A stretch of 60,000 bases of DNA, from positions 77,688,001-77,748,000 of the forward strand of contig CM059432.1 of assembly GCA_030390025.1 (NCBI GenBank), written 5' to 3'. Source of the DNA: Squalus acanthias (lineage: Eukaryota). A model generated the notes under the pieces. The model saw nothing but the letters and a program-made list of their open reading frames with translations, made no database searches and was not told where the DNA came from. Position numbers and translations under genes: made by a program. How positions within the stretch are numbered: the first letter of the stretch is position 1; every line of letters starts with the position of its first letter. Positions 10,087 to 60,000 of this stretch are shown in pieces.

Positions 10087-11132
10087 TGTCTTTTGCACTC
10101 GCATGCTGGGCTCCATCATCATTGAGGATGGGGATATTCATGGAGCCTCCTCCTCCCGTTAGTTGTGTAATGGTCCACCACCATTCACAACTGGATGTGG
10201 CAGGCCTGGAGAGCTTTGATCTGATCCGTTGATTGTGGGATCGCTTAGCCCTGTCTATAGCATGCTGCTTCCGCTTTTTAGCATGCATGTAGTTCTGTGT
10301 TGTAGCTTCCCCAGGTTGGCACCTCATTTTTAGGTATGCCTGGTGCTGCTCCTGGCATGCTCTTCTACACTCCTTATTGAACCAGGATTGGTCCCCTGGC
10401 TTGATGTAATGGTAGAGTGAGGGATATGCCAGGCCATGAGGTTATAGACTGTGGTGGAATATAATTCTGCTGCTGCTGATGGCCCACAGTGCCTCATGCA
10501 TGCCCAGTTTTGAGCTGCTAGATCTGTTCTGAATCTATCCCATTTAGCATGGTGGTAGTGCCACACAACACGATGGAGGGTGTCCTCAGTGTGAAGATGG
10601 GACTTCGTCTCCACAATAACTGTGCGGTGGTCACTGCTACCAATGCTGTCATGGACAGATGCATCTGCGACAGGTAGATTGGTGAGGACGAGGTCAAGTA
10701 GGTTTTTCCCTCGTGTTGATTCTCTCACCACCTGTCGCAGGCCCAGACTGGCAGTTATTTCCTTCAGGATTCGGCCAGCTCGATCAGTAGTGGTGCTACC
10801 GAGCTACTCTTGGTGATGGACGTTGAAGTCCCCCACCCAGAGTACATTCTGCGCCCTTGCTACTCTCGGTGCTTCTTCCAAGTGGTGTTCAACATGGCAG
10901 AGTACTGATTCATCAGCTGAGGGAGGGTGGTAAGTGGTAATCAGCAGGAGGTTTCCTTGCCCATGCTTGACCTGAAGCCATGGGACTTCATGGGGTCCGG
11001 AGTCAATGTTGAGGACTCCCAGGGCCACTCCTTCCCGACTGTATACCACTGTGCCACCACCCCTGTGGGTCTGTCCTGCCGGTGGGACAGGACATACCCA
11101 GGGATGGTGATGGGAGAGTTTGGCACATTGGC
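10087..11132 (-). mobile_element. Family-A LINE, 5' (APE endonuclease) portion of the copy at 2993-4508, 5'-truncated
   Basis: GGGTVVY, YHPPS, GDFNVHH, LDLVLTN, SDH motifs; sequence is continuous with 4508 when compared to 50060-50095. Confidence 0.9.
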
Positions 11133-11819
11133 TATGGAGGAGTTTGGGACCTTCCGACCCTGTGGCAGGAGTGCATCCAATTGTGCCAAGCTGACACTTG
11201 TAGATGATCAAAGTACTACAAAAAGTTTCCTTTCTACCTGTTACATCTTGATCGAGGCCACATGAAAAGCACTTAGAGAACTGTATAGCTCTCTCATAGC
11301 TTAACATGCTTGTCCTTACTGTACCAGTGCAAACTTTCTAGCTGCAACTTTGAGTTGCAACTATTGTTGCACTTATATCTGTAGAGGTGCCTGAAAGCAA
11401 GCTTCCAAAAAACTTCGCTGTATGATGCACGTTTGTTTATTTACACACACTGAAATGCAGTATAGGAGCTTGGGTGTCACTGCTGTACTCTTAAAATTGC
11501 AACTTCCCTGTACTTAAGTGTCAGCCTTGACAATGTGCTTAAGAAAGCAGCACATAATACGAGGAGAAAACCCCACACAGGAGGAGGGCTTTCAGTGCAT
11601 TTGAGGACTTTTGTCAAAATCTTAGAGATTGAGAGTAGAGAGGGGTGGAGGAATGAGAAACTAGAGGCCTCTCTCAGGACTCAGGACCATTCTTTTCCTG
11701 TTTCCCTTGATCCCTCTATTCAAAGACTCGAATACAATACCATGATACACATTACCATGTCAGTATTATTTGAAGGGGTGTTTTGTTACCATAATTCTAA
11801 TATTTCTCTCCAGTTCATA

Positions 11820-12579
11820 TACAAGTGCCAGGCAATGACTATCTCCAACAAGCGAGAGTCTAACCACCTCCCCTTGACATTCAATGGCATTACCATCGCC
11901 GAATCCCCCACTATCAACATCCTGGGGGTCACCATTGACCAGAAACTTAACTGGACCAGCCACATAAATACTGTGGCAACAAGAGCAGGTCAGAGGCTAG
12001 GTATTCCACGGCGAGTGTCTCACCGCCTGACTTCCCAAAGCCTTTCTACCATCTACAAGGCACAAGTAAGGAGTGTGATGGAATACTCTCGACTTGCCTG
12101 GATGAGTGCAGCTCCAACAACACTCAAGAAGCTCAACACCATCCAGGACAAAGCAGCCCACTTGATTGGCACCCCATCCACCACCTTAAACATTCACTCC
12201 CTCCACCACCGGCATACCGTGGCTGCAGTGTGTACCATCTACAAGATGCACTGCAGCAACTCGCCAAGGCTTCTTCGGCAGCACCTCCCAAACCCGCAAT
12301 CTCTTCCACCCAGAAGGACAAGGGCAACAGGTGCATGGGAACACCACAACCTCCAAGTCACACACCATCCTGACTTGAAAATATATCGCCGATCCTTCAT
12401 AGTCGCTGGGTCAAAATCCTGGAACTCCCTCCCTAACAGCACTGTGGGAGTAACTTCACCACACGGACTGCAGCGGTTCAAGGCGGCGGCTCACCGCCAC
12501 CTTCTCGAGGGCCATTAGGGATGGGCAATAAATGCTGGCCTTGTCAGCGACGTCCACATCCCATAAACGAATAAAAAAA
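11820..12579 (+). mobile_element. Family-A LINE 3' fragment
   Basis: KCQAMTISNKRESNHLPLTFNG... to 3' hairpin and A-tail. Confidence 0.9.
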
Positions 12580-18567: not shown

Positions 18568-20509
18568 TAGTAGTAAGCCTGAGGATTGGGAGAGCTTTAG
18601 AAACCAGCAAAGGATGACCAAAAAATTGATAAAAAGGGAGAAGATAGAATGAGAGTAAACTGGTAAGAAATATAATAACAGACTGTAAGAGCTTCTACAA
18701 GTATGTAAAAAGCAAGAGAGTAGCAAAAGTAAGCGTTGGTCCCTTAGAAGCTGAGACAGGAGAAATTATAATGGGGAGGAAGGAAATGGCAAGACTTTAA
18801 ACAAATATTTTGTATCTGTCTTCACAGTAGAAGACATAAAAAGCATACCAGAAAGAGTGGGGAACCGAGGCTGTTGAAATTGAGGAACTTAAAGTAATTA
18901 AGATCAGTAGAGAAAAAGTCCTTGAGAAACTAATCGGACTAAAAGCTGACAAATCCCCTGGACCTGATGGCCTACATCCGAGGGTTCTAAAAGAGGTGGC
19001 TGCAGAGATAGTGGATGCATTGGTTGTGATCTTCCAAAATTCCCTAGATTCTAGAACAATACAGCGGATTGGAAGGTAGCAAATGTAACTCCGCTATTCA
19101 AGAAAGGAGGGAGAGAGAAAACAGGCTAGTGAGCCTGACATCAGTCGTCAGGAAAATGCTGGAACCCATTATTAAGGAAGTGGTAACAGGGCACTTAGAA
19201 AATTATAAGATAATTAGGCAGAGTCAACATGGTTTTATGAAAGGGAAATCATGTTTAATAAATTTATTAGAGTGTTTGGAGGATGTAACTAGCAGGGTAG
19301 ATAAAGGGGAACCAATGGATGCAGTATATTTGGATTGCCAAAAGGCATTTGATAAGGTGCCATATAAAGGTTGCTATGCAAGATTAGGGCTCATGGGGTT
19401 GGGGGTAATATATTAGCATGGATAGAGGATTGGTTAACGGACAGAAAACAGAGAGTAGAGATAAATAGGTCATTTTTCAGTTGGCAGACTGTAAAGGAGT
19501 GCCGCAAGGATCAGTACTTGGGCCTCAGCTATTTACAATCTATATTAATGATTTAGATGAAGGGACTGAGTGTAATGTATCCAAGTTTGCTGATGATACA
19601 AAGCTAGGTGGGAAAGTAAGCTGTGAGGAGGACACAAAGAGCCTGCAAAGGGATATATTCAGGTTAAGTGAGTGGGCAGATGGAGTATAATGTAGGGAAA
19701 TGTGAGGTTATTCACTTTGGTAGGAAGAATAGAAAAACAGAATATTTTTTAAATGGTGAGAAACTATTAAATGTTGGTGTTCAGAGAGATTTAGGTGTCC
19801 TCATACAGGAAACAAAGAGAGTTAGCAAGCAATAAGGAAAGCAAATGGCATGTTGGCTTTTATTGCAAGGGAGTTGGAGTACAAGAGTAAGGAAGTCTTG
19901 CTACAATTGTACAGGGATTTGGTGAGACCACACCTGGAGTACTGTGCACAGTTTTGGTCTCCTTACCTGAGGAAGGTTCACTAGATTGATTCTTGGGATG
20001 AGAGGGTTGTCCTATGAGGAGAGATTGAGTAGATTGGACCTATACTCTCTGGAGTTTAGAAGAATGAGAGGTGATCTCCTTGAAACATCTAAGATTCTGA
20101 GGGGGATTGACTGGGTTGATGCTGAGAGGCTCCCTCCCCCGACTGGAGAGTCTAGAACTGGGGGGTATAGTCTCAGGATAAGGGGGTCGGCCATTTAAGA
20201 CTGAGATGAGGAGGAATTTCTTCACTCAGAGGGTTGTGAATCTTTGGAATTCTCTACCCCAAAGGGCTGTGGATGCTGAATCATTGAGTATATTCAAGGC
20301 TGAGATAGATAGATTTTTGGACTCTAGGGAATCAAGGGATATGGAGATCGGCCGAGAAAGTGGAGTTGAGGTTGAAGATTAGCCATGATCTTATTGAACG
20401 GCGGAGCAGGCTCGAAGGGACGAATGGTCTACTCCTAATTCTTACGCTCTTATGTTCTTACATTAATTACATGCACAACCCTAAAACCCTTTCCTTCACT
20501 TTAACAGGC

Positions 20510-21713: not shown

Positions 21714-24713
21714 AGATGTAGCATTAGAAAGGAGAAACAAAGGGCACAAAGGATTGGGAGAGGCAGAGAGCACTAAAGCAAGAAACAGTAAGGTATTAGG
21801 TGGGGTCAGACTAAGAGAGAACACAGGATGATCTAAGATAGGTTTACAGTGTGTGTATGTAAACACACGAAGCATAGTAAACAAGGTTGGTGAGCTGCAG
21901 GCGCAAATAGCCACATGGGAATATAATGTTGTGGCAATAATGGGGACCTGGTTCAAAAAAAGGGCAGGATTGGGTTTTAAATATTCCTGGATATAGGGTG
22001 TTCAGGAAAGATAGGGAAGGAAAGATGGGAGGTGGTGTGGCAGTATTGGTTAAGGAGAATGTTACAGTGCTGGAGAGAGAGAATGTCCTGGAGGGGTCAA
22101 GGACAGAATCTATATGGCTAAAGTTAAGAAATAATAGAGGTGCCATTACAGTACTAGATGTGTTCTATAGGCCACCAACTAGTGGGAAGAATATGGAGGA
22201 GCAAATTTGCAGGGAAATTAGGGAGAGATGCAAGAACTATAGAGTAGTGATAATGGGGGACTTCAACTATCCTAATATAGACTGGGATAGTACTAGTGTA
22301 AAGGGCAGGGAGGGGGAAGAATTTCTGAAGTGTGTTCAGGAGAACTTTTTTGATCAGTATGTTTCTGGCCCAATGAGGAAGGAGGCATTGCTGGATCTGG
22401 TTCTGGGGAATGAAGTCGGTCAAGCGGAGCAAGTGTCAGTAGGTGAACATTTAGGGAACAGTGATCATAGTATCATAAGGTTTAGATTAGCTATGGAAAA
22501 GGACAGGGAGCAATCTAGAGTAAAAAATACTTAATTGGAGGAAGGCAAATTTCAGTGGGATGAGAAAGGATCTGGCCTGAGTAAATTGGAATCAAAGATT
22601 GGCAGGCAAAACTGTAGTGGACAATGGGCTGCCTTTAAAGAGGAAATAGTTTGGGTACAGTCGAGGTACATTTCCACAAGGGGGAAAAGTAGGGCAACTA
22701 AAGTCAGAGCTCCCTGGATGACGAAAGAGATAGAGAGTAAGATGAAGCCGAAAAAAAGTGCATATGACAGATGTTAGTTTGAGAATACATCTGAGAATCA
22801 GGCTAAATATAGATAGTTCAGAGGAGAAGTGAAAAAGAAAATAAAAGGGGCAAAGAGAGGGTATGAGAATAGAATGGCAGCTAACATAAAAGGTAATCCA
22901 AAAGACCTCTATAGGCATTTCAATCATAAACGGGTAGTAAGAAGAGGGGTGAGGCTGTTTAGGGACAAAAAGGAGACTAACGCATGGAGGCAGAGGGTAT
23001 GGCTAAGGTACTAAATGAGTACTTTGCATCTGTCTTCACCAAGGAAGAAGATGCTGCCATAGACATAGTAAAGGAGGAGGTAGTGGAGATACTGGATGGG
23101 ATAAACATTGATAAAGAGGAGGTACTAGAAAGGTTGGCTGTACTTAAAGTAGATAAGTCACCAGGACCGGATGGGATGCATCCTAGGATGCTGAGGGAAG
23201 TGAAGGAAGAAATCGTGGAGGTACTGGCCATAATCTTCCAATCCTCCTTAGAAACGGGGGTGGTGCCAGAGGACTGGAGAATTGCAAATGTTACACCCTT
23301 GTTCAAAAAAGGGTGTAAAGATAAACCCAGCAACTATAGGCTGGTCAGTTTAACTTCAGTAGTGGGGAAGCTTTTAGAAACAATAATCAGGGACAAAATT
23401 AACAGTCACTTGGACAAGTGTGGATTAATTAAGGAAAGCCAGCACGGATTTGTTAAAAGCAAATCGTGTTTAACCAACTTGATATAGTTTTTTGATAAGG
23501 TAACAGAGAGGGTTGATGAGGGCAATGCGGTTGATGTGGTGTACATGGATTTCCAAAAGGCATTCAACAAAGTGCCACATAATAGGCTTGCCAGCAAAGT
23601 TGAAGCCCATGAAATAAAAGGGACAGTGGCAGCATTGATACGAAATTGGCTAAGTGACAGGAAACAGAGAGTAGCGGTGAATGGTTGTTTTCCAGACTGA
23701 AGGAAGGTGTTCCCCAGAGTTCAGTACTAGGACCACTGATTTTCTTGATATATATTAATGACTTGGATGTGGGTGTACAGGGCACAATTTCAAAATTTGC
23801 AGATGACACAGAACTTGGAAGTATAGTGAACAGTGAGGAGGATAGTGATAGACTTCAAGAGGACATAGACAGGCTGGTGGAATGAGCAGACACGTGGCAG
23901 ATGACATTTAATGCAGAAAAGTGTGAAGTGATACATTTTGGTAGAAAGAATGAGGAGAGGAAATATAACCTAAATGGTACAATCCTAAAGGGAGTGCATG
24001 AACAGAGACACCTAGGGGTATATGTGCATAAATCGTTGAAGGTGGCAGGTTGAGAAAGCAGTTAAAAAAGCTTATGGGATCCTGGGCTTCATGAGTAGAG
24101 GTATAGAGTACAAAAGCATGGAAACTATGATGAACCTGTATAAAACACTGGTTCGGCCTCAACTGGAGTATTGTGTCCAATTCTGGGCACCGCACTTTAG
24201 GAAGGATGTAAAGGCCTTAGAGATGGTGCAGAAAAGATTTACGAGAATGGTTCCAGGGATGAGGGACTTCAGTTACGTGGATAGACTGGAGAAGCTGGGA
24301 TTGTTCTCCTTATAGAGCAGAGAAGATTGAGAGGAGATTTGATAGAGGTGTTCAAAATTATGAGGGGTCTGGACAGAGTAGGTAGAGAAAAACTGTTCCC
24401 ATTGGCGGAAGGGTCGAGAACCAGAGGACACAGATTTAAGGTGATTGGCAGAAGAACCAAAGGCGACGTAAAAAAAAACTTTTTTACTCAGCGGTTATGA
24501 TCTGGAATGCACTGCCTGAAAGGATGGTGGAGGCAGACTCAATCATGGCTTTCAAAAGGGAATTGGATAAGTACTTGAAAGAAAAACATTTGCAAGGCTA
24601 CGGGGAAAGAGAGGCGGAGTGGTTCTAGCTGAGGTGCTCTTGCAGAGAGCCGGCACAGGCTCGACGAGGCAAATGGCCTTCTTCCGTGCTGTAACCAGTC
24701 TATGATTCTATGA
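21714..24713 (+). mobile_element. CR1 LINE, near-complete ORF2, degraded
   Basis: NTRSIVNKVGEL, GGGVAVLV, YRPP, GDFNYP, SDH, KSPGPDGMHP, FADD; TCTATGATTCTATGA tail. Confidence 0.92.
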
Positions 24714-25680: not shown

Positions 25681-27134
25681 CATAGGATTACATAGAATAT
25701 ACAGTACAGAAACAGGCCATTTGACCCAACCAGTCCATGTTAGCGTTTATGTTCCACTTGAGCCTCCTCCCATCCTTCCACATCTAATTCTATCAGCATA
25801 ACCCTACATAACCCTCTGTTCTCTTCTCCCTCATATGCTTATCTAGCTTCCCCTTAAATACATCTATATAATTCGCCTCAACTACTCCCTGTGGTAGCGA
25901 GTTCCACATTCTCACCACTCTCTGGGTAAAGAAGTTTCTTCTGAATTCCCTATTTGATTTCTTGGTGACTATCTTATACTTCTTGCCTCTAGTTTTGCTC
26001 TCCCCACAAGTGGAAACACTCTCACTGTGTCTACTCCATCAAAACCTTTCATAAATTTAAAGACCTCTATTAGGTCACCCCTCAGCCTTCTCTTTTCAAG
26101 AGAAAAGAGACCAAGCCTGTTCATCCTTTCCTGATAGGTATAACCTCGCAGTTCTGGTATCACTTTGTAAGTCTTTTTTGTACCCTCTCCAGTGCCTCTA
26201 GATCCTTTTCATAATATGGCAACCAGAACTGTACACAGTACTCCAAGTGTGGTCTAACCAAGGTTCAATACAAGTTTAGCATAACTTCACTACTTTTCAA
26301 GTCTATCCCTCTGGAAATAAACTTTAGTGCTTGATTTGCTTTTGTTATAGCCTTATTGACCAGCATCGCAATTTTTAGTGATTTTTGTATTTGTACACAG
26401 AGATCCCTTTGCTCCTCCCCATTTAGAGACTTATTTTCTAAGTAATATGTGACCTCCTTATTTTTCTTATCTACATTGAAATTCATTTGCCAATTATATG
26501 CCCATTCTGCAAGTTTATTAATGTCTTCCAGTAATGTTTTGCAGTCCTCCTCAGTGTTGACTATCCCTCCCAATTTGGTGTTGTCCGCTAATTTAGAAAT
26601 TGTATTCATGATTCCAAAATGTAAATCGTTAATATAAATTGTGAACAACAGTGGTCCCAGCACTGATCCTGTGGGACCCTACTTCCCACCTTCTGCCACT
26701 CTGAATAGCTACCCTTTACCCCTACTCTCTGCTTTCTTTCAGCCAGCCAGCTATCCATTCTACTACTTGTCCACTGATTTTGCACGCTCTGACCTTATTC
26801 ATTAGTCTAATATGTGGTACCTTGTCGAAGGCCTTTTGGAAATCTAGATAAATTACATCTACTGCATTACCCTTGTCCACGCTCTCTGTTATCTCTGCAA
26901 ATAATTCAATGAGGTTGCTCAAGCAAGACTTGCCCCTTTCATTATTATATTTTTGGTTTCTAGATGTTTTTCTATTTTCCCCTTTAGGAGGGATTCCATT
27001 ACTTTTCCTACCACCGATGTGAAGCTGACTGGTCTATAGTTCCCTGGACATGTTCTATCTCCCTTCTTAAATATACGTAAAATGTTAGCTATTCACCAGT
27101 CCTCTGGCACTACACCTTTTTCGACTGAATTATT
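25681..27134 (-). mobile_element. CR1 LINE 3' portion (host of copy-2 insertion)
   Basis: [42 protein letters not shown]-type tail at 25681. Confidence 0.9.
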
Positions 27135-28755: not shown

Positions 28756-31730
28756 ATGCTAAAGAGAAAAGACAAGGAAGCAGTGCAGGAAAGTGATTGG
28801 GGTAAGGATAACCAGATTGTGTCAGGAAGGGACAGAACGTACAAACAAAGGAGTGCACTAACAAATAGGGTCCGGGTAAGAAAAAATGGTAATAAGACAA
28901 ATAGGGCCATAGTACAAAAAAATGTTAAGATCTCTAAAAATGTTAAAAAGACAAATCTAAAGGCACTGTATCTGAATGCACAAAGCATTCATAATAAGGT
29001 AGACGAATTAACAGCGCAAATAGATGTAAATGGATATGATATAATTGCGATTACGGAGACATGGCTGCAGGGTGACCAAGGCTGGGAGCTGAATATCCAA
29101 GGATATTCGATATTTAGGAAGGACAGGTGAAAAGGAAAAGGTGGCATTGTTAGTAAAGGATGAAATCAGAGCAATACTGAGAAAGGATATTGGCTCAGAA
29201 AATAAAGATGTAGAATCAGTCTGGATGGAGCTAAGAAGCACCAAGGGGCAGAAAACATTGGTGGGAGTTGTCTATAGGCCTCCAAACAGTAGTGGTAATG
29301 TAGGGGATGGCATCAAACAGGAAATTAGAGATGCATGTAACAAGGGTACTACAGTAATCATGGGTGACTTTAATTTACATATAGACTGGCCAAACCAAAT
29401 TAGTAATAATACTGTGGAGGATGAATTCCTGGAGTGTGTACGAGATGGTTTTTTCGACCAGTACTTGGAGGAGCCAACTAGGGAACAGGCTATCCTAGAT
29501 TGGTTATTGTGCAATGAGAAGGGGTTAATTAATAATCTTGTTGTGCGGGGTCCTTTCGGGAAGAGTGACCATAACATGATAGAATTCTTCATTAAGATGG
29601 AAAGTGAAGAAGTCCAATCTGCAACTAGGGTCCTAAATCTAAACAAAGGAAACTACGAAGGTATGAGGAGGGAGTTGGCTATGATAGATTGGGAAGCTTC
29701 AAAAAACGGCATGATGGTGGATAGGCAATGGCTAACATTTAAGGAACGAATGCATGAATTGCAACAGTTATACATTCCTTTCTGGCGCAACAACACAAAA
29801 GGAAAAGCGGCCCAACCATGGCTAACAAAAGAAATTAAGGATAGTATTAGATCCAAAGAGGAGTCATATAAAGTTGCCAGAAAAAGTAGCAAGCCTGAGG
29901 ATTGGGAGCAGTTTAGAGTTCAGCAAAAAAGGACCAAGAGATTGATTAAGATGGGAAAAATAGAGTATGAGAGTAAACTTGCAAGGAACATAAACGCAGA
30001 TTGTAAAAGCTTCTACAAGTATGTAAAAAGAAAAAGATTAGTGAAGACAAATGTAGGTCCCTTACAGTCAGAAACTGGAGAAGTTATAATGGGGAACAAG
30101 GAAATGACTGAGCAATTAACCAAATACTTTGGTTCTGTCTTCACGGAAGAGGACACAAATAACTTCCCAGAAATGCTAGGGAACCAAGGGTCTAGTGAGA
30201 AGGAGGAATTAAAGGAAATTAGTATTAGTAAAAAAAAATAGTGCTGGAGAAATTAATGGGACTGAAAGCTGATAAATCCCCAGGGCCTGATAATCTGCAT
30301 CCCAGAGTACTAAAAGAGGTAGCCATGGAAATAGTGGATGCATTGGTTGTCATCTTCCAAAATTCTATAGATTATGGAACAATTCCTGCAGATTGGAGGG
30401 TGGCAAATGTAACCCCACTATTTAAAAGAGGGAGAGAGAAAACAGGGAACTACAGACCAGTTAGCCTAACATCAGTAGTAGGAAAAATGCTAGAGTCTAT
30501 TATAAAGGATGTGATAACAGGACACTTAGAAAATATCAACGGGATTAGACAAAGTCAACATGGATTTATGAAAGGGAAATCGTATTTGACAAACCTACTT
30601 GAGTTTTTTGAGGATGTAATTGGTAGAATAGATAAGGGAGAACCAGTGGATGTGGTGTATTTGGATTTTCAGAAGGCCTTTGATAAAGTCCCACATAAAA
30701 GAGGTTAGTGTGCAAAATTAAAGCACATGGGATTGGGGGTAACATACTGGCATGGATTGAAAGTTGGTTAACAGACAGGAAACAGAGAGTAGGAATAAAT
30801 GGGTCTTTTTCAGGGTGGCAGGCGGTGACTAGTGGGGTACCGCAGGGATCAGTGCTTGGGCCCCAGCTATTCACATGATTTGGATGAGGGAACCAAATGT
30901 AATATTTCCAAGTTTGCTGATGACACGGAACTAGGTGGGATTGTGAGTTGTGAGGAGGATGCAAAGAGGCTTCAAGGCGATTTAGACAAGTTGAGTGAGT
31001 GGGCAAATACGTGGCAGATGCAGTATAACGTGGATAAATGTGAAGTTATCCACTTCGGTAGGAAAAACAGAAAGGCAGAGTATTATTTAAATGGTGATAG
31101 ATTGGGAAATGTTGATGTATAAAGGGACCTGGGTGTCCTTGTACACCAGTCACTGAAAGCAACCATGCAGGTGCAGCAAGCAGTTAGGAAGGCAAATGTT
31201 ATATTGGCCGTCATTGCAAGAGGATTTGAGTACAGGAGCAAGGATGTCTTACTACAGTTATACAGGGCCTTGGTGAGACCACACCTGGAGTACTGTGTGC
31301 TTTTTTGTTCTCCTTATCTAAGAAAGGATATGCTTGCCATAGAGGGAGTGCAGCGAAGGTTCACCAGACTGATTCCTGGGATGGCAGGACTGTCGTATGA
31401 GGAGAGATTGGGTCGACTAGGCCTGTATTCACTAGAGTTTAGCAGAATGAGAGGGGATCTCATGGAAACGAATAAAATTCTGACAGGGCTAGACAGACTG
31501 GATGCAGGGAGGATGTTTCCCCTGATTGGGGGTCTAGAACGAGGGGTCATAGTCTCAGGATACGGGGTAGGACATTTAGGACTGAGATGAGGAGAAATTT
31601 CTTCACTCAGAGGGTGGGGAACCTGTGGAATTCTCTACCACAGACAGCTGAGGAGGCCAAGTCACTGAATATATTTAAGGAGATAGATAGATTTCTAGAC
31701 ACAAAAGGCATCAAGTGGTATGGGGAGAGA
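28756..31730 (+). pseudogene. CR1 ORF2 (APE endonuclease + reverse transcriptase), disrupted
   Basis: YLNAQSI, ITETWL, YRPP, GDFN, SDH, NYRPVSLTS, YLDFQKAFD and FADD across several ORF pieces; 3' end approximate. Confidence 0.9.
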
Positions 31731-40329: not shown

Positions 40330-40596
40330 CCCGCGACCTCTACCACCTAGAAAGACAAGGGCAGCAGGTCCACCTCCAAGTCACACACCATCCTGACTTG
40401 GAAGTATATCGCCGTTCCTTCATCGTCGCTGGGTCAAAATCCTGGAACTCCCTCCCTAACAGCACTGTGGGAGTACCTGCACCACATGGACTGCAGCGGT
40501 TCAAGAAGGCGGCTCACCACCACCTTCTTAAGGGCAATTAGGGATGGGCAATAAATGCTGGCCTTGCCAGCAACGCCCACATCCCATGAACGAATA
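40330..40596 (+). mobile_element. Family-A LINE 3' end fragment
   Basis: Matches 51477-51750 including the terminal hairpin. Confidence 0.9.
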
Positions 40597-46120: not shown

Positions 46121-46312
46121 TCACCAATAAAATGACCTTGATAAAAAGTTTGCTGCTGTACTGAACCAGCCACTACCAACTTCTTGCTTACTCCCAACAC
46201 GGGACACAGCATTGTCATCATCCTTCGCAGGACTCTCCTCTTCAGGCAAGTAGTCTGGTAATTCTGTGTTTTCCTCAACTTCAACAGGTGTACCTTGGAA
46301 TGGAATCAGCAT
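46121..46312 (-). CDS. Terminal coding exon of an unidentified host gene
   Basis: Acceptor TTTTAATCATTACTTTATAG directly before 46312; 63 codons [26 protein letters not shown]...[18 protein letters not shown]; followed by ~2 kb of TE-free AT-rich sequence. Confidence 0.7.
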
Positions 46313-46625: not shown

Positions 46626-46708
46626 CTGAACTGGATGATGTAGACTGAACTGGATGATGTAGACTGAACTGGATGATGTAGACTGAACTGGATGATGTAG
46701 ACTGAACT
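46626..46708. repeat. 19-bp perfect tandem repeat, ~4.4 units
   Basis: CTGAACTGGATGATGTAGA x4 plus partial. Confidence 0.95.
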
Positions 46709-47217
46709 CCATCACTGATGCTCAGCGACTGGCAAGCACAAAATACAAAACACGACTGAAATGGGGAACACCCCCCCACCCTCCCCCCAAAAAAAATAAC
46801 GAATGCTGGCACAGCAAATACTGGAAATGCACAAGTAAAGCACTAGGGGTCAGTGTTGGGATCAAAACTCTGATATATATTAATGACTTTGACTTGGGTA
46901 TAGGGGGCATAATTTCAAAGTTTGTAGTTGACACGAAACTCGTAAATGTAGTAAACAGTGAGGAGGAAAGCAACAGACTTCAGGAGGACATAGACAGATT
47001 GGTGAAATGGGCAGACACATGGCAGATGAAATTTAATGCAGAGAAGTGTGAAGTGATTCATTTTGGTAGGAAGAATGTGGAAAGGCAATATAAACTAAAT
47101 GGTAGTTTTAAAGGGGGTGCAGGAACAGAGAGCTCTGGGGTATATGTACACAAATCTTTGAAGGTGGGAGGACAAGCTGTTAAAAAGGCATACGGGATCC
47201 ATGGCTTTATAAACAGA

Positions 47218-48069
47218 TAGTGGTCATGATGCGGAGATGCCGGTGTTGGACTGGGGTGGACAAAATTGAGAGGTCGCACAACACCAGGTTATAGTCCAAC
47301 AGTTTTATTTGAAATCACAAGCTTTCGGAGCTATCGATTGCCCCTTCCTCAGGTGAAGTAAATTAGATACAGAATCACCAAAGCATATATAGATAGAGAA
47401 CAAAGCATGTGTACCTTACAATTGCAGACCACTAAATTAAATCATCCTGACTATCTGCCGAGGTGTGATAAAGTTAATCAAGTCAGCCAGGAAGGTACCA
47501 CATCAAAGACATAGCAAGATACAACTGAGACAATGAGGTGTAGTCGCAGGGGTTCTAACGTGTCAAAAGCTGCCGTCTGTATGTAAAACGAAAAGCTTTA
47601 AAATTTTTACTTTTTTACTGGGAAAATTTTTACTTTTTTACTGGGAATCACATCTGTGAACAAGCCAACGACGACTCGAGTCCGGATCACGTCATGTATC
47701 GTGACATAAACCCAAGATCCCGGTTGAGACCGTCTTCATGAGTGCAGAACTTGGCTATCAGTTTCTGCTCGATGATTTTGCGTTGTCGTGTGTTTCTAAG
47801 GTTGCCTTGGAGAACGCTTCCTTCCTGATGTGGTACCTTCCTGGCTGACTTGATTAACTTTATCACACCTCGGCAGATAGTCAGGATGATTTAATTTAGT
47901 GGTCTGCAATTGTAAGGTACACATGCTTTGTTCTCTATCTATATATGCTTTGGCGATTCTGTATCTAATTTACTTCACCTGAGGAAGGGGCAATCGATAG
48001 CTCCGAAAGCTTGTGATTTCAAATAAAACTGTTGGACTATAACCTGGTGTTGTGCGACCTCTCAATTTT
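47218..48069 (-). mobile_element. Penelope-like remnant with 244-bp inverted pLTR arms and two hammerhead motifs
   Basis: Arms 47262-47505 / 47826-48069 (one mismatch seen); internal GIY-YIG C-terminus EQKLIAKFCTHEDGLNRDLGFMSRY; CTGAGGA...GAAAGCTT at 47979-48012; 12-bp duplication TTTATAAACAGA. Confidence 0.9.
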
Positions 48070-48512
48070 ATAAACAGAGACAGAGTACAAAAGCAAGAAC
48101 GTTATGCTAAACTTTTATAACTCACTGGTAAAGCCTCAGCTTGAAATTGTCTTCAATTCTGGACACCATACTTTAGGAAGGACATCAAAGCCTTATAGAA
48201 GGTGCAGAAGAGATGTACTAGAATGGTACCAAGGATGAGGGACTTTAGTTATGTGGAGACTGGAAAAGCTGGGGTTGTTCTCCTTAGAGCAGAGAAGATT
48301 AAGAGATTTGAGGTGTTCAAGATCATGAACGGTTTTGAGAGAGTAAATAAAGAGAAACCGTTTCCAATGGCAGAAGGGTCAGTAGCCAGAGGGCACAGTG
48401 TTAGTGATAGGCAAAAGAAGTAGAGGTGACACGAGGAAACATTTTTTTTTATACAGCGAGTTGTTGTGATCTGAAATGCAGCACCTGAAAGGGTGGTGGA
48501 CGCAGATTCAAT

Positions 48513-51500
48513 TGACGGGAACAGTAGCATAGTGGTTATGTTACTGGACTAGTAATCCAGAGGCCTGTACTAATAATCCAGAGACGTGAGATCAAATCCC
48601 ACCACGGCAGCTGGGGAATTTAAATTCAGTTAATTAAATAAATCTGGAATAAAAAGCTAGTATCAGTAATGGTGACCATGAAACTATTGGATTGTCGTTA
48701 AAAACCCATCTGGTTCACTAAGGTCCTTTAGGGAAGGAAATCTGCCGTCCTTACCTGGTCTGGCCTATATGTGACTCCAGACCCACAGCAATGTGGTTGA
48801 CTCTTTACTGCCCTCTGAAATGGCCCAGCAAGCCACTCAGTTGTAACAAACCGCTACGATAAACAATAATAAGAATAAAACTGGACGGACCACCCGGCAT
48901 CGACCTAGGCACCGACTACGGACACGTCAACGGCAAACCCAGCTCAGCCGACCCTGCAAAGTTCTCCTTACGAACATCTGGGGCATATGCCAAAATTGGG
49001 AGAGCTGTTGCAAAGACTAGTCAAGCCTGACATAGCCATACTCACAGAATCATACTTTTCAGCCAACGTCCCAGACTCCTCCATCACCATCCCTGGGTAC
49101 GTCCTGTCCCACCGGCAGGACAGACCCACCAAAGGTGGTGGCACAGTGATATACAGTCGGAGTGAGTGGCTCTGGAAATCATCAACATTGACTCCGGACC
49201 CCATGGCTCATGGCTTCAGGTCAAGCATAGGCAAGGAAACCTCCTGCTGATTACCACCTACTGCCCGCCCTCAGCTGATGAATCAGTACTCCTCCATGTT
49301 GAACATCACTTGGAAGAAGCACGGAGAGTAGCAAGGGCACCGAATGTACTCTGGGAGGGGGGGGGACTTCAATGTCCATCACCAAGAGTGGCTCGGTTGC
49401 ACCACTACTGACCGAGCCCTGAAGGATATAGCTGCCAGTCTGGGCCTGCGACAGGTGGGGAGAGAACCAACACGAGGGAAAAACCTACTTGACCTCGTCC
49501 TCACCAATCTACCTGTCGCAGATGCATCTGTCCATGACAGCATTGGTAGCAGTAACAACCGCAGTCCCGTCTTCACACTGAGGACACCCTCCATCGTGCT
49601 GTGTGGCACTACCACCGTGCTAAATGGGATAGATGCAGAACAGATCTAGCAGCTCAAAACTGGGCATCCATGAGGAGCTGTGGGCCATCAGCTGCAGAAT
49701 TGTATTCCACAACAATCTGTAACCTCATGTCCTGGCATATCCCACCATTACCATCAAGCCAGGGGACCAACCCTGGTTCAATGAGGAGCGTAGAAGAGCA
49801 TGCCAGGAGCAGCACCAGGCGTACCTAAAAATGAGGTGTCAACCTGGGGAAGCTGCAAAACAGGACTACATGCATGCTAAACAGCGGAAGCAGCATGCTA
49901 TAGACAGGGTTAAGTGATCCCACAATCAACGGCTCAGATCAAAACTCTACAGTCCTGCCACATTGAGTCGTGAATGGTGGTGGACCATTAAACAACTAAC
50001 GGCAGGAGGAGGCTCCATGAATATCCCCATCCTTAATGATGGTGGAGCCCAGCACGTGAGTGCAAAAGACAAGGCTGAAGCGTTTGCAATCATCTTCAGC
50101 CAGAAGTGCCGAGTGGATGATCCATACTGGCCTCCTCCGGAGGTTCCCACCATCACAAAAGCCAGTCTTCAGCCAATTCGATTAACTCCACGTGATATCA
50201 AGAAATGGCTGAGCGCACTGGATACAGCAAAGGCTATGGGCCTCGACAACATCCCGGCTGTCGTGCTGAAGAACTGTGCTCAAGAACTAGCTGCGCCTCT
50301 AGCCAAGCTGTTCCAGTACAGCTACAACACTGGAATCTATCCGACAATGTGCAAAGCTGCCCAGGTATGTCCAGTCTACAAGAAGCAGGACAAATCCAAT
50401 CCGTCCAATTACCGCCCCATCAGTCTACTCTCAATCATCAGCAAAGTGATGGAAGGTGTCGTCGATAGTGCTATTAAGCGGCACTTACTCACCAATAACC
50501 TGCTCCCGATGCCCAGTTTGGGTTCTGCTAGGACCACTCGGCTCCGGACCTCATTACAGCCTTGGTCCAAACATGGACAAAAGAGCTAAATTCCAGAGGT
50601 GAGGTGAGATCAAGGCAGCATTTGACCGAGTGTGGCATCAAAGAGCCCTAGTAAATGTAAAAATGTCAATGGGAATCAAGGGGGAAAACTCTCCACTGGC
50701 TGGAGTCATACCTAGCACAAAGGAAGATGGTTGTGGTTGTTGGAGGTCAATTATCACAGCCCCAGGACATTGCTGCAGGAGTCCCTCAGGGCAGTGTCCT
50801 AGGCCCAACCATCTTCAGCTGCTTCATCAATGACCTTCCCTCCAGCATAAGGTCAGAAGTGGGGATATTCGCCGATAACTGCACAGTGTTCAGTGCCATT
50901 CGCAACTCCTCAGATAATGAAGCAGTCCATACCTGCATGCAGCAAGACCTGGATGACATTCAGGCTTGGGCTGATAAGTGGCAGGTAACATTCACGCCAC
51001 ACAAGTGCCAGGCAATGACTATCTCCAACAAGCGAGAGTCTAACCACCGCCCCTGGACATTCAACGGCATTACCATTGCTGAATCCCCCGCCATCAACAT
51101 CTTGGGGGGGTCACCATTGACCAGAAACTTAACTGGACCAGCCACATAAATTCTGTGGCAACAAGAGCAGGTCAGAGGCTGGGTATTCTGTGGCGACTGT
51201 CTCACCTCTTGATTCCCCAAAGTCTTTCCACCATCTACAAGGCACAAGGTCAGGAGTGTGATGGAATACTCTCCATTTGCCTGGTTGAGTTCAGCTCCAA
51301 CAACACTCAAGAAGCTCGACACCATACATGACATAGCAGCCCGCTTGCTTGGCACCCCATCCACCACCTTAAACATTCACTCCCTCCACCACCGGCGTAC
51401 CGTGGCTGCAGTGTGTACCATCTGCACGATGCACTGCAGCAACTTGCCAAGGCTTCTTCTACAGCACCTCCGAAACCCGCGACCTCTTCCACCTAGAAGG

Positions 51501-51757
51501 ACAAGGGCAGCAGGCGCATGGGAACACCATCCCCTACAAGTTACACACCATCCTGACTTGGAAGTTTATCGCCGTTCCTTCATCATCGCTGGATCAAAAT
51601 CCTGGAACTCCCTCTCTAACAGCACTGTGGGAGTACCTTCACCACAAGGACGACAGCGGTTCAAGAAGGCGGCTCACCAGCACCTTCTCAAGGGCAATTA
51701 GAGATGGGTAATAAATGCTGTCCTTGCCAGCGACGCGATGAACGAATAAAAAAAAAA
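48513..51757 (+). mobile_element. Full-length family-A LINE with tRNA-derived 5' head, single APE-RT reading frame (disrupted in this copy)
   Basis: tRNA-like head 48517-48605; APE from LLTNIWG (48964) with [37 protein letters not shown]; stop at 51701; hairpin and A-tail; both ends defined by the interrupted CR1 host. Confidence 0.92.
48525..48599 (+). promoter_or_regulatory. Pol III type-2 internal promoter (A and B boxes) in tRNA-Thr(AGT)-like head
   Basis: A box TAGCATAGTGG (48525-48535); anticodon arm CTGGA-CTAGTAA-TCCAG (48544-48560); B-box-like AGATCAAATCC (48589-48599, diverged from GGTTCRAATCC). Confidence 0.75.
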
Positions 51758-51887
51758 GTAACTTTCAAAAGGGAATTGGATATATAGAGCAGGGGAGTGG
51801 GATTAATTGGAAAGCTCTACCAAAGAGCCGGCACAGGCACGAAGGGCCTAATAGCCTCCATCTTTTCTATATTATTCTATGATTCTA

Positions 51888-52625
51888 GGAGGTTACAAAG
51901 ATAGGGAAAGGCAAGGCCATGGAGGGTTTTTAAAACATGAATGAATCATAGAAATTTACGGCACTCTCGGAGGCCATTTGGCCCATCGTGTCTATGCCGG
52001 CCCAAAAAGAGCTATCTAGCCTAATCCCACATTCCAGCTCTTGGTCCGTAGCCTTGTATGTTAATTTTGGGGTATTTAAAATTGAGGCATTGCCAGACCG
52101 AGAGCCAATATAGGTCAGCGAGCACAGGGGTGATGGGTGAACAGGACTTGATGCGAGTTAGGATACAGGCAGCAGAGCTTTGCATGAGCTCAAGTTAATG
52201 GAGGGTGGAAGATGGGAGGCCGGCCAGGATAGTCAAGTATAGAGATAACAAAGGCATGGATGAGGGTTTCAGCAGCAGATAAACAGAGGCAGGGACAGAG
52301 ACGGGCAATGTTACGGAGGAGGAAGTAGGCGGTCTTGGTGATTGAGTGGCTATGTGGCCGGAAGCTCACCTTGGGGTCCAATAGGACAAGCAAGGTTGTG
52401 AACGGTCTGGTTCGGCTTCAATGACCAGGGAGAGGGATGGAGTCGGTGGCAGCGACTGAAGACAATGGCTTCGGTCGTCCCAAAATTTAGTCGGAGGAAA
52501 TTTCCAACTAAATAGTGACAAGCAGCGTGACCAATCAGAGACAGTAGAGTGTTGAGAGAGGTGGTGGTGAGGTAGAGCTGGGTGTCGTCCATATACATGT
52601 GGAACCGGACGTTGTGTTTTCAGAT
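51888..52625 (-). mobile_element. L2-clade LINE fragment (with small CR1 tail insert ~51945-52060)
   Basis: MYMDDTQLY, TKTAYFLLRNIARL, AAETLIHAFVISILDY. Confidence 0.85.
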
Positions 52626-52629
52626 GGTG

Positions 52630-54150
52630 TTACACTTTAGGAAGGATGTCAAGGAAGGATGTCAAGGACTTAAGAGAGGGTGCAGAGATTTACTAGAATG
52701 GTACCAGGGATGAAAGACTTCAGTTATGTGGAGAGACTAGAGAACTGGGGTTGTTCTGCTTAGTGCAGAGAAAGTTAAAGGGAGATTTGATAGAGCTGTT
52801 CAAAATCATGAAGGTTTTTTTTTCGTTTATGGGATGTGGGCGTCGCTGGCAAGGCCAGCATTTATACAATGAAGGAATGGTGATATGCTTCCAAGTCAGG
52901 ATGTTGTGTGACTTGGAGGGGAACTTGGAGGTGGCAGTGTTCCCATGTGCCTGCTGCTGTTGTTCTTCTAGGTGGAAGAGGTCGTGGGTTTGGGAGGTGC
53001 TGTCGAAGAAGCCTTGGCGAGTTGCTGAAGTGCATCTTGTAGATGGTACACACTGCAGCCACGGTACGCCGGTGGTGGAGGGAGTGAATGTTGAAGGTGC
53101 TGGATGGGGTGCCAATCAAGCAGGCTGTTTTGTCCTGGATGGTGTCGAGCTTGTTGTTGGAGCTGCACTCATCCAGGCAAGTGGGGAATATTCCATCACA
53201 CTCCTTACTTGTGCCTTGTAGATGGTGGAAAGGCTTTGGGGAGTCAGGAGGTGAGACACTCGCCGCAGAATACCTAGCCTGACCTGCTCTTGTTACCACA
53301 GTATTTATGTGGCTGGTCCAGTTAAGTTTCTGGTCAACGGTGACCCCCAGAATGTTGATGGTGGGGGATTTGGCGATGGTAATGCCGTTGAATGTCAAGG
53401 GGAGGTGGTTAGACTCTCGCTTGTTGGAGATAGTCATTGCCTGGCACTTCTGTGGCGCGAATGTTACCTGCCACTTATCAGCCCAAGCCTGAACGCCGTC
53501 CAGGTCTTGTTGCATGCGGGCATGGACTGCTTCATTATCTGAGGAGTTGTGGATGGCGCTGAACACTGTGCAGTCATCAGCGAACATCCCCATTTCTGAC
53601 CTTATGTTGAAGGGAAGGTCATTGATGAAGCAGCTGAAGATGGTTGGGCCTAAGACACTGCCCTGAGGAACTCCTGCAGCGATGTCCTGGGGCTGTGATG
53701 ATTGACCCTCAACCACCACAACCATCTTCCTTTGTGCTAGGTATGACTCCAGCCAGTGGAGCGTTTCCCCCCCCCCGATTCCCATTGACTTCAGTTTTAC
53801 TAGGGCTCCTTGATAGAGTAAATAAAGAGAAACTGTTTCCAGTGGCATAAGTGTTGGTTACTAGGGTGCACAGATTTAAGGTAATTGGCAAAAGATGTGA
53901 CATGACGGGAAAAAATTATGCAGCGAGTTGTCATGAGCTGGAATGCATTGTCTGAAAGGATGGTGGAAGCAGATTCAAGAATAACTTTCAAAAGGGAATT
54001 GAGTAAATACTTGAATGGGAACAATTTGCAGGATTATGGGGAGGGAGCAGTGGAATGGGACTAAATGGATAGCTCTTTCAAAGAAGCGGTGGCACAGGTA
54101 TGACGGGCCGAATGGCCTCCTGTGCTGTATCAGTCTATGATTCTATGATT
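52630..54150 (+). mobile_element. CR1 3' end split by a family-A insertion
   Basis: CR1 text ...ATCATGAAGG|TTGATAGAGTAAATAAAGAG continuous across the insert; TCTATGATTCTATGA tail. Confidence 0.85.
52815..53812 (-). mobile_element. Family-A LINE 3' fragment
   Basis: [26 protein letters not shown]-tail at 52815. Confidence 0.9.
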
Positions 54151-59761: not shown

Positions 59762-60000
59762 TTTTTTTTTTAATTCATTCACGGGATGTGGGTGTTGCCG
59801 GCAAGGCCAGCATTTATTGCCCATCTCTAATTGCCCTCGAGAAGGTGGTGGTGAGGGCAGTTAATAGTCAACCACATTTCTGTGGGTCTGGAGTCACATA
59901 TAGGCTAGACTGGGTAAGGATGGCCGATTTCCTTCTCTAAAAGGACATTAGTGAACCAGATGGGTTTTTACGACAATCAGACAGCTTCATAGTCACCATT
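59762..60000 (-). mobile_element. SINE-like internally deleted derivative of family-A LINE (continues past window end)
   Basis: 59853-60000 matches LINE 5'UTR 48668-48815; 59762-59855 matches LINE 3' end 51673-51757; junction at a shared CTC. Confidence 0.9.

Follow-up and report, generated by a model that had tools for sequence, protein, structure and literature searches.

A tRNA-Like Head Opens the Elasmobranch Zenon LINE, a Coding Retrotransposon Family That May Be Transcribed by RNA Polymerase III

Introduction

Reviews set coding LINEs, which are made by RNA polymerase II (Pol II), apart from non-coding SINEs, which RNA polymerase III (Pol III) makes (PMC10886601, PMC5786205). In a 60,000-nt stretch of the Squalus acanthias genome (contig CM059432.1, positions 77,688,001 to 77,748,000; hereafter the window), a tRNA-like head with Pol III boxes stands before a LINE coding frame. 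Pol III is taken to make short non-coding RNAs only. The locus therefore raises the questions of whether the head belongs to the family or to this copy, which polymerase would transcribe such an element, and how its frame would be translated.

Results

The insert belongs to the elasmobranch Zenon LINEs, of the CR1 group and without ORF1, and this copy of it is dead (Table 1). The first-pass annotation of the window had taken its ends from the CR1 that it interrupts. This was confirmed by the flanks, which once joined are colinear with CR1 copies that carry no interruption; the insertion falls in the CR1 3' region, and the target was neither duplicated nor lost. Among 17 Zenon copies, no convincing target-site duplications were found. 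The same annotation could not say whether the family was already catalogued. It is, since the first 400 nt of SquAca_Zenon-1 in the supplement of Stuart et al. 2026 (PMC13343379) match the column majority built here almost letter for letter, and this near identity to a consensus that PMC13343379 places in Zenon also assigns the reverse transcriptase (RT). In an RT tree built without named Zenon proteins, the element fell in a weakly supported clade (91/79) with a lepidopteran relative, separate from the genome's CR1. Poly(A) is also of the Zenon kind, the A tails being short at the 3' ends listed (41), as are the absence of ORF1 and the single ORF with APE endonuclease and RT. No relatives were returned in viral contigs.

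Table 1. Features of the Zenon copy, its host CR1 and a SINE-like deletion form, in window coordinates.
Feature	Position	Strand	Remarks
Host CR1, upstream portion	48041..48512	+	
Decayed full-length elasmobranch Zenon LINE copy	48513..51757	+	5.5% divergence from family majority
5' extension before core start	48513..48516	+	All or most in 6/44 head-complete copies; last two letters in 12; core start in 26
tRNA-derived head	48517..48605	+	D arm, anticodon arm, extra hairpin, T arm; acceptor stem lost
Pol III A box	48525..48535	+	Consensus-matching in 35/44 head-complete copies
Anticodon-like arm (AGT)	48544..48560	+	One letter off the core of the genome's tRNA-Ser(AGA) arm; stem same as tRNA-Gln
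Second hairpin, at variable-arm position between the boxes	48565..48581	+	
Pol III B box	48588..48598	+	Consensus-matching in 33/44 head-complete copies
Leader, near-invariant in five shark and ray species	48703..48843	+	Candidate ribosome-entry element; predicted hairpins 48724-48738 (GGG loop), 48757-48783, 48783-48795, 48815-48840
In-frame stop closing the coding frame upstream	48844..48846	+	
AUG-free frame opening, A-rich then Arg-rich	48847..48972	+	Conserved GCT codon 48853-48855
Single APE-endonuclease/RT frame, broken in this copy	48847..51701	+	973 codons in family majority; endonuclease from ~48973; first in-frame AUG only at 49670; FADN 50868-50879
3' tail, common to SINE-like deletion forms	51660..51757	+	AATAAA 51710; hairpin ~51717-51731; A tail 51748-51757
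Host CR1, downstream portion	51758..51890	+	
SINE-like deletion form, leader joined to tail, cut by window end	59794..60000	-	

The earlier reading of a single APE/RT frame without ORF1 held: the family majority is one stop-to-stop frame of 973 codons, with Pfam matches to the endonuclease and RVT_1. The copy had also been called dead, rightly: its frame has taken 16 indels, of which 10 shift it, and FADN stands in place of the family's two aspartates. None of the 17 full copies examined, from thousands, was intact (16 with frameshifts, one with stops). Variants shared among copies lean to third positions and to synonymous changes in the APE (7 synonymous vs 5 not) and RT (11 vs 6) regions, and no synonymous lean was seen in the middle region (7 vs 10). 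The open majority frame suggests that the family would be autonomous.

We then asked of the genome whether the head is the family's 5' end. All 39 non-self matches to a head-plus-ORF query, with 40 scored out of 11,533 candidates, cover both parts. When 28 copies were chosen by ORF sequence alone, 9 extended to the head start (one in pieces), 15 broke off within the leader or head and 4 deeper in the element; an alternative 5' end was seen in none of the 28, and no pair had a common upstream flank. Copies chosen by head alone continued into the ORF in 19 of 20 cases, and all 16 extended copies were colinear and full length (3.19-3.30 kb). The joint matches, ORF-chosen copies, head-chosen copies and colinear copies rule out a one-off SINE-LINE chimera, and a hidden ORF1 or longer 5' end is ruled out because no upstream flank is common to the copies. 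In all five elasmobranch species of the supplement, the head opens the Zenon consensus (first 400 nt, by eye) with near-consensus A and B boxes; by eye, four of the B boxes are consensus-type and that of the ray misses by one letter, the intervening sequence has diverged between species, and no acceptor stem survives. The 5' ends of head-complete copies are spread across several positions. Full-length copies that lack the head or carry an ORF1 were looked for and none was found among those sampled, indicating that this coding, ORF1-less LINE family carries the tRNA head as a constant component, as had been proposed.

The head itself is tRNA-like. In a Rfam search of 48300-48900, the sole match was tRNA at 24.4 bits (E=0.01), under the gathering score of 29; the search returned no IRES, no ribozyme and nothing else at E<=5. 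The Rfam tRNA model scored 21.7-26.3 bits on 6 of 9 other copies, and these six showed a D arm, an anticodon arm, a 22-nt insertion and a T arm. ARAGORN called no tRNA gene in the Zenon head, so the head is tRNA-like and not a tRNA. The A box and AGT arm of the first-pass annotation were borne out, whereas its B box (48589-48599) lay 1 nt off. A threonine donor, read from the AGT triplet, was unsupported: among the five isotypes compared, Thr(AGT) scored 47 against 50.5 for Ser(AGA), 51 and 51 for Gln, and 32-43 for Lys and Cys. In the second hairpin, stem letters vary between species and pairing is retained (by eye, published consensuses). ARAGORN, run on 44 of 80 metagenome LINE loci, found no tRNA there either, a weak test given that it misses the Zenon head too. 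With respect to the SINE2 class, a tRNA-derived head with A and B boxes is present, but an element of 3.3 kb and 973 codons is neither short (100-700 bp) nor non-coding, and only its deletion forms are.

Runs of T are strongly depleted along the element. According to the accessible text of PMC8223928, TTTT truncates Pol III reporter transcripts. The sense strand of the family majority (3,307 nt) contains no T4 and seven T3, neither TTT-V-T nor T-V-TTT occurs in it, and T4 is absent from 12 of 17 copies. The majority has 1 window with four T in five. Base shuffles gave 20.6, with 0 of 1000 reaching so small a count, and dinucleotide shuffles gave 9.9 (P=0.006). No depletion was observed for A, C or G windows, and T3 depletion persisted with codon usage fixed (P=0.006). 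T4 by itself did not reach significance, with P=0.19 for dinucleotide and P=0.13 for codon-preserving shuffles. Since Zenon copies are not independent, a single master sequence of 3.3 kb underlies the T-run statistic. Within the same genome, 131.8 kb of Zenon copies contained T4 9 times, and 10.8 kb of segments from other LINEs, chiefly one CR1 family, contained it 43 times. The observed/expected ratio was 0.06 for the Zenon majority vs 0.58-1.97 for 74 of 75 other LINE fragments, most of which are more T-rich than the Zenon family and few of which are close relatives. The undepleted fragments include L138, of the same broad clade as the Zenon element; the exception, L199, has no T4 and a ratio of 0.28 that approaches the Zenon family, though it belongs to another clade. 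Taken together, the A and B boxes and the terminator avoidance strongly, if indirectly, suggest that the Zenon family would be transcribed by Pol III.

Head and leader together span 330 nt. In the family majority, the endonuclease motif lies at codon 43 and the first Met at codon 287, and none of the nine AUGs in the first 480 nt opens the frame. Since no AUG precedes the endonuclease domain, initiation is probably non-AUG, behind the conserved leader. The frame was preserved in 60 of 65 linkers, 13 of these being shorter by multiples of 3, although AAT repeats in the linker favour 3-nt slips with or without selection; at this point, the dogfish consensus as published has one letter fewer than the majority built here. 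From the GCT codon, the frame is retained in four other species (by eye). The leader contains uORFs, one of which overlaps the main frame and is closed early in two species (by eye), and 28 of 74 copies lack the closest AUG that is out of frame.

Other sources of a start codon were considered. An AUG supplied by splicing was not seen, full copies being colinear. Read-through from an in-frame AUG in the last leader hairpin is disfavoured because stops intervene (one in three species, two here). For a frameshift from the overlapping uORF, the AUG is lacking in the 28 copies noted above, and not every species preserves the frame relation. The gain in leader folding over shuffles is modest (z=-1.9), no two-sided changes were found in four of its helices within the genome, and Rfam gave no match to Dicistrovirus IGR IRES or HCV-like IRES models. 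The leader motif had 0 matches in metagenome contigs. In a weak comparison with the Meta, Deu, V and CORE domains of MetaSINEs, DeuSINEs and similar SINEs, short leader motifs were absent from two supplements except for one chance match in a CR1 coding region.

At the 3' end, the hairpin and A tail described at first pass are both present, the A tail being short. The AATAAA and poly(A) are compatible with Pol II processing and count against Pol III. With regard to a built-in terminator like that of B2, at least two T were found in 10 of 37 tails, and in 8 of 71 when a comparable position inside the element was taken, which is probably slippage. Deletion forms consisting of head, leader and tail (~400 nt) resemble ordinary SINEs; exact leader-to-tail matches numbered 262, with several junctions, vs 1,816 for one LINE linker variant. 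A leader-tail joint of like kind was found in contigs of three other organisms.

Discussion

We consider it likely that the tRNA head acts as a promoter for a Pol III RNA without terminators, that this RNA is translated without an AUG, and that it gives rise to the SINE-like derivatives. Specifically, an ancestral shark-ray Zenon LINE would have gained a tRNA-derived 5' end in place of its own promoter. The 3.3-kb sense strand is cleared of the U runs that halt Pol III, so that the polymerase would read past the A tail and halt, SINE-like, at the next T run in the flank. The uncapped RNA would be translated without AUG from just behind the conserved leader, which may recruit the ribosome, and the single APE-RT protein would use the 3' tail to insert this RNA through target-primed reverse transcription, a process established for LINEs. 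Because the promoter is already of the SINE type, one internal deletion would yield a SINE-like element; the several junctions point to repeated events, presumably in the direction from LINE to SINE. The chances are about even for the fuller claim of an autonomous shark-ray retrotransposon with a 3.3-kb, uncapped Pol III mRNA and its own AUG-independent ribosome entry, which births tRNA SINEs by one deletion and so reverses the head-added-last model. Against a Pol III RNA of 3.3 kb, the SINE length of 100-700 bp has been ascribed to weak Pol III processivity (PMC10886601).

An unlikely alternative is that the head is an accessory or a relic of SINE capture, and that a Pol II transcript, driven by cryptic signals in the head or leader or by host read-through, is capped, polyadenylated at AATAAA and translated by re-initiation after a leader uORF. 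AUG-independent re-initiation is known for L1 ORF2, and the leader does contain uORFs, one overlapping the main frame. The 3' end fits as well, poly(A) being common to all Zenons surveyed in the accessible text of PMC13343379; LINE transcription is attributed to Pol II (PMC10886601, PMC5786205), and a cited title speaks of Pol II transcription from Pol III promoters. However, a Pol II origin leaves unaccounted for both the retention of the boxes across sharks and rays, amid changed neighbouring sequence, and a T-specific run depletion that is absent in the genome's CR1 and 74 of 75 other LINE fragments. Its uORF route is also weakened by the frequent loss of the nearest AUG and the early closure in two species noted above.

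We give less credence still to a dual use, in which Pol III makes the full-length RNA for reverse transcription and the protein comes from minority Pol II transcripts or unseen source elements, the family being mostly a very long SINE. Such a division would explain the boxes and the T-run avoidance without translation of uncapped RNA, and it agrees with the lack of an intact copy among 17, but the majority frame is open throughout with its motifs intact, shared variants lean synonymous in APE and RT (not in the middle region), and no copies with an alternative 5' end were found. Least probable, and very much so, is that the head serves as an RNA structure instead of a promoter, for example as a site at which RNase P would release the element from host co-transcripts, in the manner of the HDV-like ribozymes of R2 and L1Tc. 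RNase P needs an acceptor stem, which is lost here; moreover, the 5' ends are spread over several positions, and terminator avoidance would be left unaccounted for. In favour of a structural role, the head hairpins retain pairing across species (by eye), and there are precedents for processed 5' ends and for a tRNA-like fold in L1Tc (PMC3383444).

Returning to a Pol III-transcribed coding element, the catalogued elasmobranch Zenons (SquAca_Zenon-1, CarCar, ScyCan, RhiTyp and HypSab; PMC13343379) are the same family, ~3.3 kb with poly(A) and no ORF1. That study sorts elements by RT, and its accessible text contains no tRNA, polymerase, promoter, Pol III or start codon; the head, terminator avoidance, AUG-less frame and SINE derivatives are absent from this part of its account. 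Other Zenon and CR1-Zenon elements (Lepidoptera, hagfish, coelacanth) and the SIDE Persaeus likewise show one ORF and poly(A), together with derivatives that have lost internal sequence (PMC6740152). Persaeus retains the Zenon 5' end, yet it has neither tRNA homology nor a Pol III promoter (PMC6740152), unlike the elasmobranch Zenon, and no such head was seen by eye in the first 400 nt of the hagfish and coelacanth consensuses. The ~400-nt deletion forms fit tRNA SINEs (SINE2, including the Bov-tA type on bipartite RTE/Vingi LINEs), which have a tRNA head with A and B boxes, a conserved body and a LINE tail. SINEs are stated to be non-protein-coding, their head thought to be added onto an already deleted LINE (PMC5786205), whereas the Zenon head stands on a full coding element and the SINE-like forms appear secondary.

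The retrotransposons Cassandra, Helenus and Ajax (TRIMp3) also have a Pol III promoter, which derives from a small RNA gene (PMC10886601), but they are LTR-type, non-coding, non-autonomous and at most ~1.3 kb. R2 and L1Tc/ingi are LINEs that have a single ORF or are compact; their RNA is taken to lack a cap, and cap-independent translation has been proposed for them (PMC3383444); they differ in that an HDV-like ribozyme on a host co-transcript (rRNA for R2) sets the 5' end, without a tRNA-type promoter. In the Dicistrovirus IGR IRES, a tRNA-mimicking structure sets a non-AUG start, according to the accessible text of PMC3517527. A candidate counterpart in Zenon immediately precedes the open frame: a hairpin with a 7-nt loop and an AGC that might pair with the GCT codon. 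In contrast to the IGR IRES, it has no Rfam match and only 3-4 possible pairs, and in 23 of 72 copies the U of the loop is altered. The literature searched revealed no coding LINE transcribed by Pol III; Repbase, Dfam, most subscription papers, the Zenodo files of PMC13343379 and bioRxiv supplements lay outside its scope and may remark on the head.

If the proposed account is true, the elasmobranch Zenon would be a genome-encoded Pol III mRNA retained across the shark-ray split, and a family of several thousand copies would demonstrate that vertebrate Pol III is able to produce a functional mRNA of 3 kb. It would also offer a compact natural element that translates uncapped RNA without an AUG, and a directly traceable route of SINE origin.

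Identity of the insertion and its family

The element at 48513-51757 (+ strand) is a real feature. It forms a whole insertion within the 3′ region of a CR1: once joined, the CR1 flanks were colinear with uninterrupted CR1 copies and showed no target duplication, in agreement with the first-pass annotation, which held that the host fixes the ends of the insert. The coding part contains endonuclease and RT domains and is disrupted by 10 frameshifting indels as well as FADN, indicating that this copy is dead, as had been proposed. The tRNA-like head noted at first pass was also recovered, as the sole match of the Rfam tRNA model across 48300-48900 (24.4 bits, E = 0.01, under the cut-off), and a D arm, anticodon arm, 22-nt insertion and T arm were present in the heads of 6 of 9 other copies.

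Features of the window, with Zenon fragments 87-92% identical to the insertion
Feature	Position	Strand	Remark
A box	48525-48535	+	head of element
B box	48588-48598	+	head of element
Truncated Zenon fragment 1	2994-4510	-	
Truncated Zenon fragment 2	10087-11133	-	
Truncated Zenon fragment 3	11821-12579	+	
Truncated Zenon fragment 4	40330-40576	+	
Truncated Zenon fragment 5	52869-53814	-	
SINE-like form	59794-60000	-	leader-to-tail deletion, cut by window end
Canonical CR1-type LINE fragments (many)	4861-5373, 18888-19681, 21977-24713, 26163-27128, 30241-31374, 46696-47290, 52652-52818, 53810-54148		in part T-run control
Acidic frame, 63 residues	~46121-46312	-	stop at end

The acidic frame resembles the terminal coding exon of a host gene and had no match in a Pfam search; if this exon is real, the insertion sits within, or close to, an intron of a gene on the opposite strand.

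Leader motifs of the window were found in six or seven consensuses of Stuart et al. (2026, PMC13343379), and the first 400 nt of their dogfish consensus, SquAca_Zenon-1, matched the column majority of the family copies near-exactly, indicating at the sequence level that the family is already catalogued, as elasmobranch Zenon. According to the same paper, no repeat database had formally annotated the elasmobranch Zenons. Its main text does not mention tRNA, polymerase, promoter, Pol III or start codon, and its supplement does not mention tRNA. Read by eye, a tRNA-like head opens the Zenon consensus in 5/5 elasmobranch species, whereas none was seen within the 400 visible letters of the hagfish and coelacanth Zenons; Persaeus, a lepidopteran Zenon derivative, has no Pol III promoter (PMC6740152). 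Phylogenetic placement of the RT, suggested at first pass, set the family apart from the CR1 of the same genome, in a tree whose deeper forks were weakly supported. The best full-length protein relative (40%) was P0014, a metagenome protein on contigs of 3.6-3.8 kb, which carries an Arg-rich stretch ahead of the endonuclease similar to that of the Zenon family. Zenon protein pieces were also seen inside annotated proteins, most from sharks (P0002, P0005-P0009; aldo-keto reductase-like, GPCR-like and others); these are probably gene-model errors, with exonisation as the alternative.

The head as a family feature

We searched the Squalus acanthias genome (3.7 Gb) for family copies. With a head-plus-ORF query, 39/39 non-self hits covered both parts (40 scored of 11,533 candidates). 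Since this query is biased, a separate search was made with the ORF sequence alone, yielding 28 distinct copies after removal of one duplicate: 9 extended to the start of the head (one of them as separate pieces), 15 were 5′-truncated within the head or the leader, 4 were truncated deeper inside the element, and no two shared flank upstream of the 5′ junction. When the head alone was used, 19 of 20 fetched copies (out of 39 hits) ran on into the coding region. All 16 copies that were extended, namely those with alignment reaching the locus edge, were colinear over 3.19-3.30 kb and lacked convincing target duplications, so the head is shared by full-length copies, as anticipated at first pass. 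Copies lay 3.0-5.9% from their column majority, and a 25-letter motif from one subfamily had 1,816 exact occurrences in the genome.

Scored against the genome's tRNA genes, the head gave 50.5 for Ser(AGA), 51 for both Gln, 47 for Thr(AGT) and 32-43 for Lys and Cys. Its 5′ half fitted Ser best, and tRNA-Ser also has a long variable arm; the scores do not single out one donor. Large tandem tRNA gene arrays (Gln, Thr, Ser and others) were observed in this genome at C21:3.34-3.41 Mb and C26:41.6-44.0 Mb and in C889 and C29.

Avoidance of Pol III terminators

A TTTT run stops Pol III, and removal of one such run gave more full-length reporter RNA (PMC8223928). The family majority (3,307 nt) contained no run of four T (T4), seven runs of three (T3) and no interrupted terminator; 12/17 copies had no T4. 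Windows with four T in five numbered 1; base shuffles gave 20.6 (none of 1000 reached so low a count) and dinucleotide shuffles 9.9 (P = 0.006), and the corresponding A, C and G windows were not depleted. T3 depletion persisted with codon usage fixed (P = 0.006); T4 alone did not reach significance with the two most stringent controls (P = 0.13 and 0.19). In the dogfish DNA examined, 9 T4 occurred in 131.8 kb of family segments vs 43 in 10.8 kb of other LINE segments, mostly of one CR1 family. The observed/expected T-run ratio was 0.06 for the majority and 0.05-0.39 across 17 copies, vs 0.58-1.97 in 74 of 75 metagenome LINE loci (from 80, those matching over 1 kb or more) and 0.28 in one; L138, a locus of the same broad clade as the family, had 17 T4. 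Note that the T-run evidence is one strong observation rather than many, because the copies descend from few masters. The locus with the ratio of 0.28, L199 (metagenome contig, 137-1625), is a LINE fragment of another clade with its 5′ end missing and no T4 in 1.5 kb, possibly reflecting chance or a second terminator-poor family.

Start of translation

The majority frame spans 973 codons stop to stop, with the endonuclease motif at codon 43 and the first Met only at codon 287; nine AUGs occur within the first 480 nt, and not one opens this frame. A conserved GCT codon is preceded, three codons earlier, by an in-frame stop. From leader end to coding anchor, the frame was kept in 60/65 copies, including 13 in which this stretch is shortened by a multiple of 3 nt, a count weakened by trinucleotide repeats in the linker, and a nearby out-of-frame AUG was absent in 28/74 copies. 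Taken together, these features suggest a non-AUG start immediately after the leader as the most likely mode of initiation. By eye, the frame from the GCT codon was kept in four other species. Upstream of this codon a base is missing in one of these species; downstream of it, the published dogfish consensus is shorter by one base. None of 17 copies examined was intact, a point against a self-translating element.

The leader is near-invariant between species and has several predicted hairpins; it folded only modestly better than shuffles (z = -1.9), matched no Rfam IRES model and showed no covariation within the dogfish genome. We give roughly a one-in-four chance that it and the GCT codon mimic an anticodon-codon pair in the manner of dicistrovirus IRESs.

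SINE-like derivatives

Leader end joined to tail within 25 nt gave 262 exact matches in the genome, with several different junctions. The 20 joints fetched belonged to head-leader-tail elements of ~400 nt or truncations of these, and any head present was the dogfish genome's own version. The same kind of joint was found on many contigs in three other organisms and on two contigs in a fourth. A few letters similar to the LINE linker survive at several joints. This suggests that the LINE gave rise to the short forms by deletion more than once, a direction inferred from the junctions. In the Kojima model, the head joins an already deleted LINE, and SINEs are stated to be unable to encode protein (PMC5786205).

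Transcription of elasmobranch Zenon

We consider it likely, from sequence evidence, that elasmobranch Zenon is a Pol III-transcribed, self-translating LINE. Transcription by Pol II, with the head a relic, would fit the AATAAA and poly(A), and SINE length is thought to be limited by Pol III processivity (PMC10886601), which counts against a Pol III LINE; we nevertheless regard Pol II as unlikely, given the T-run depletion. A scheme in which Pol III makes template RNA and protein is supplied from elsewhere seems less likely still, given a majority frame open over all 973 codons. Among 44 head-complete copies, the A box matched consensus in 35 and the B box in 33, and both match across species; because the boxes are kept while the acceptor stem is lost, the pattern would be more in keeping with a DNA promoter than with a tRNA substrate, and a head serving as a processing structure appears very improbable. 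Our literature search, with Repbase and Dfam outside it, found no Pol III-transcribed coding LINE. Elasmobranch Zenon is a known sequence family with apparently undescribed biology.
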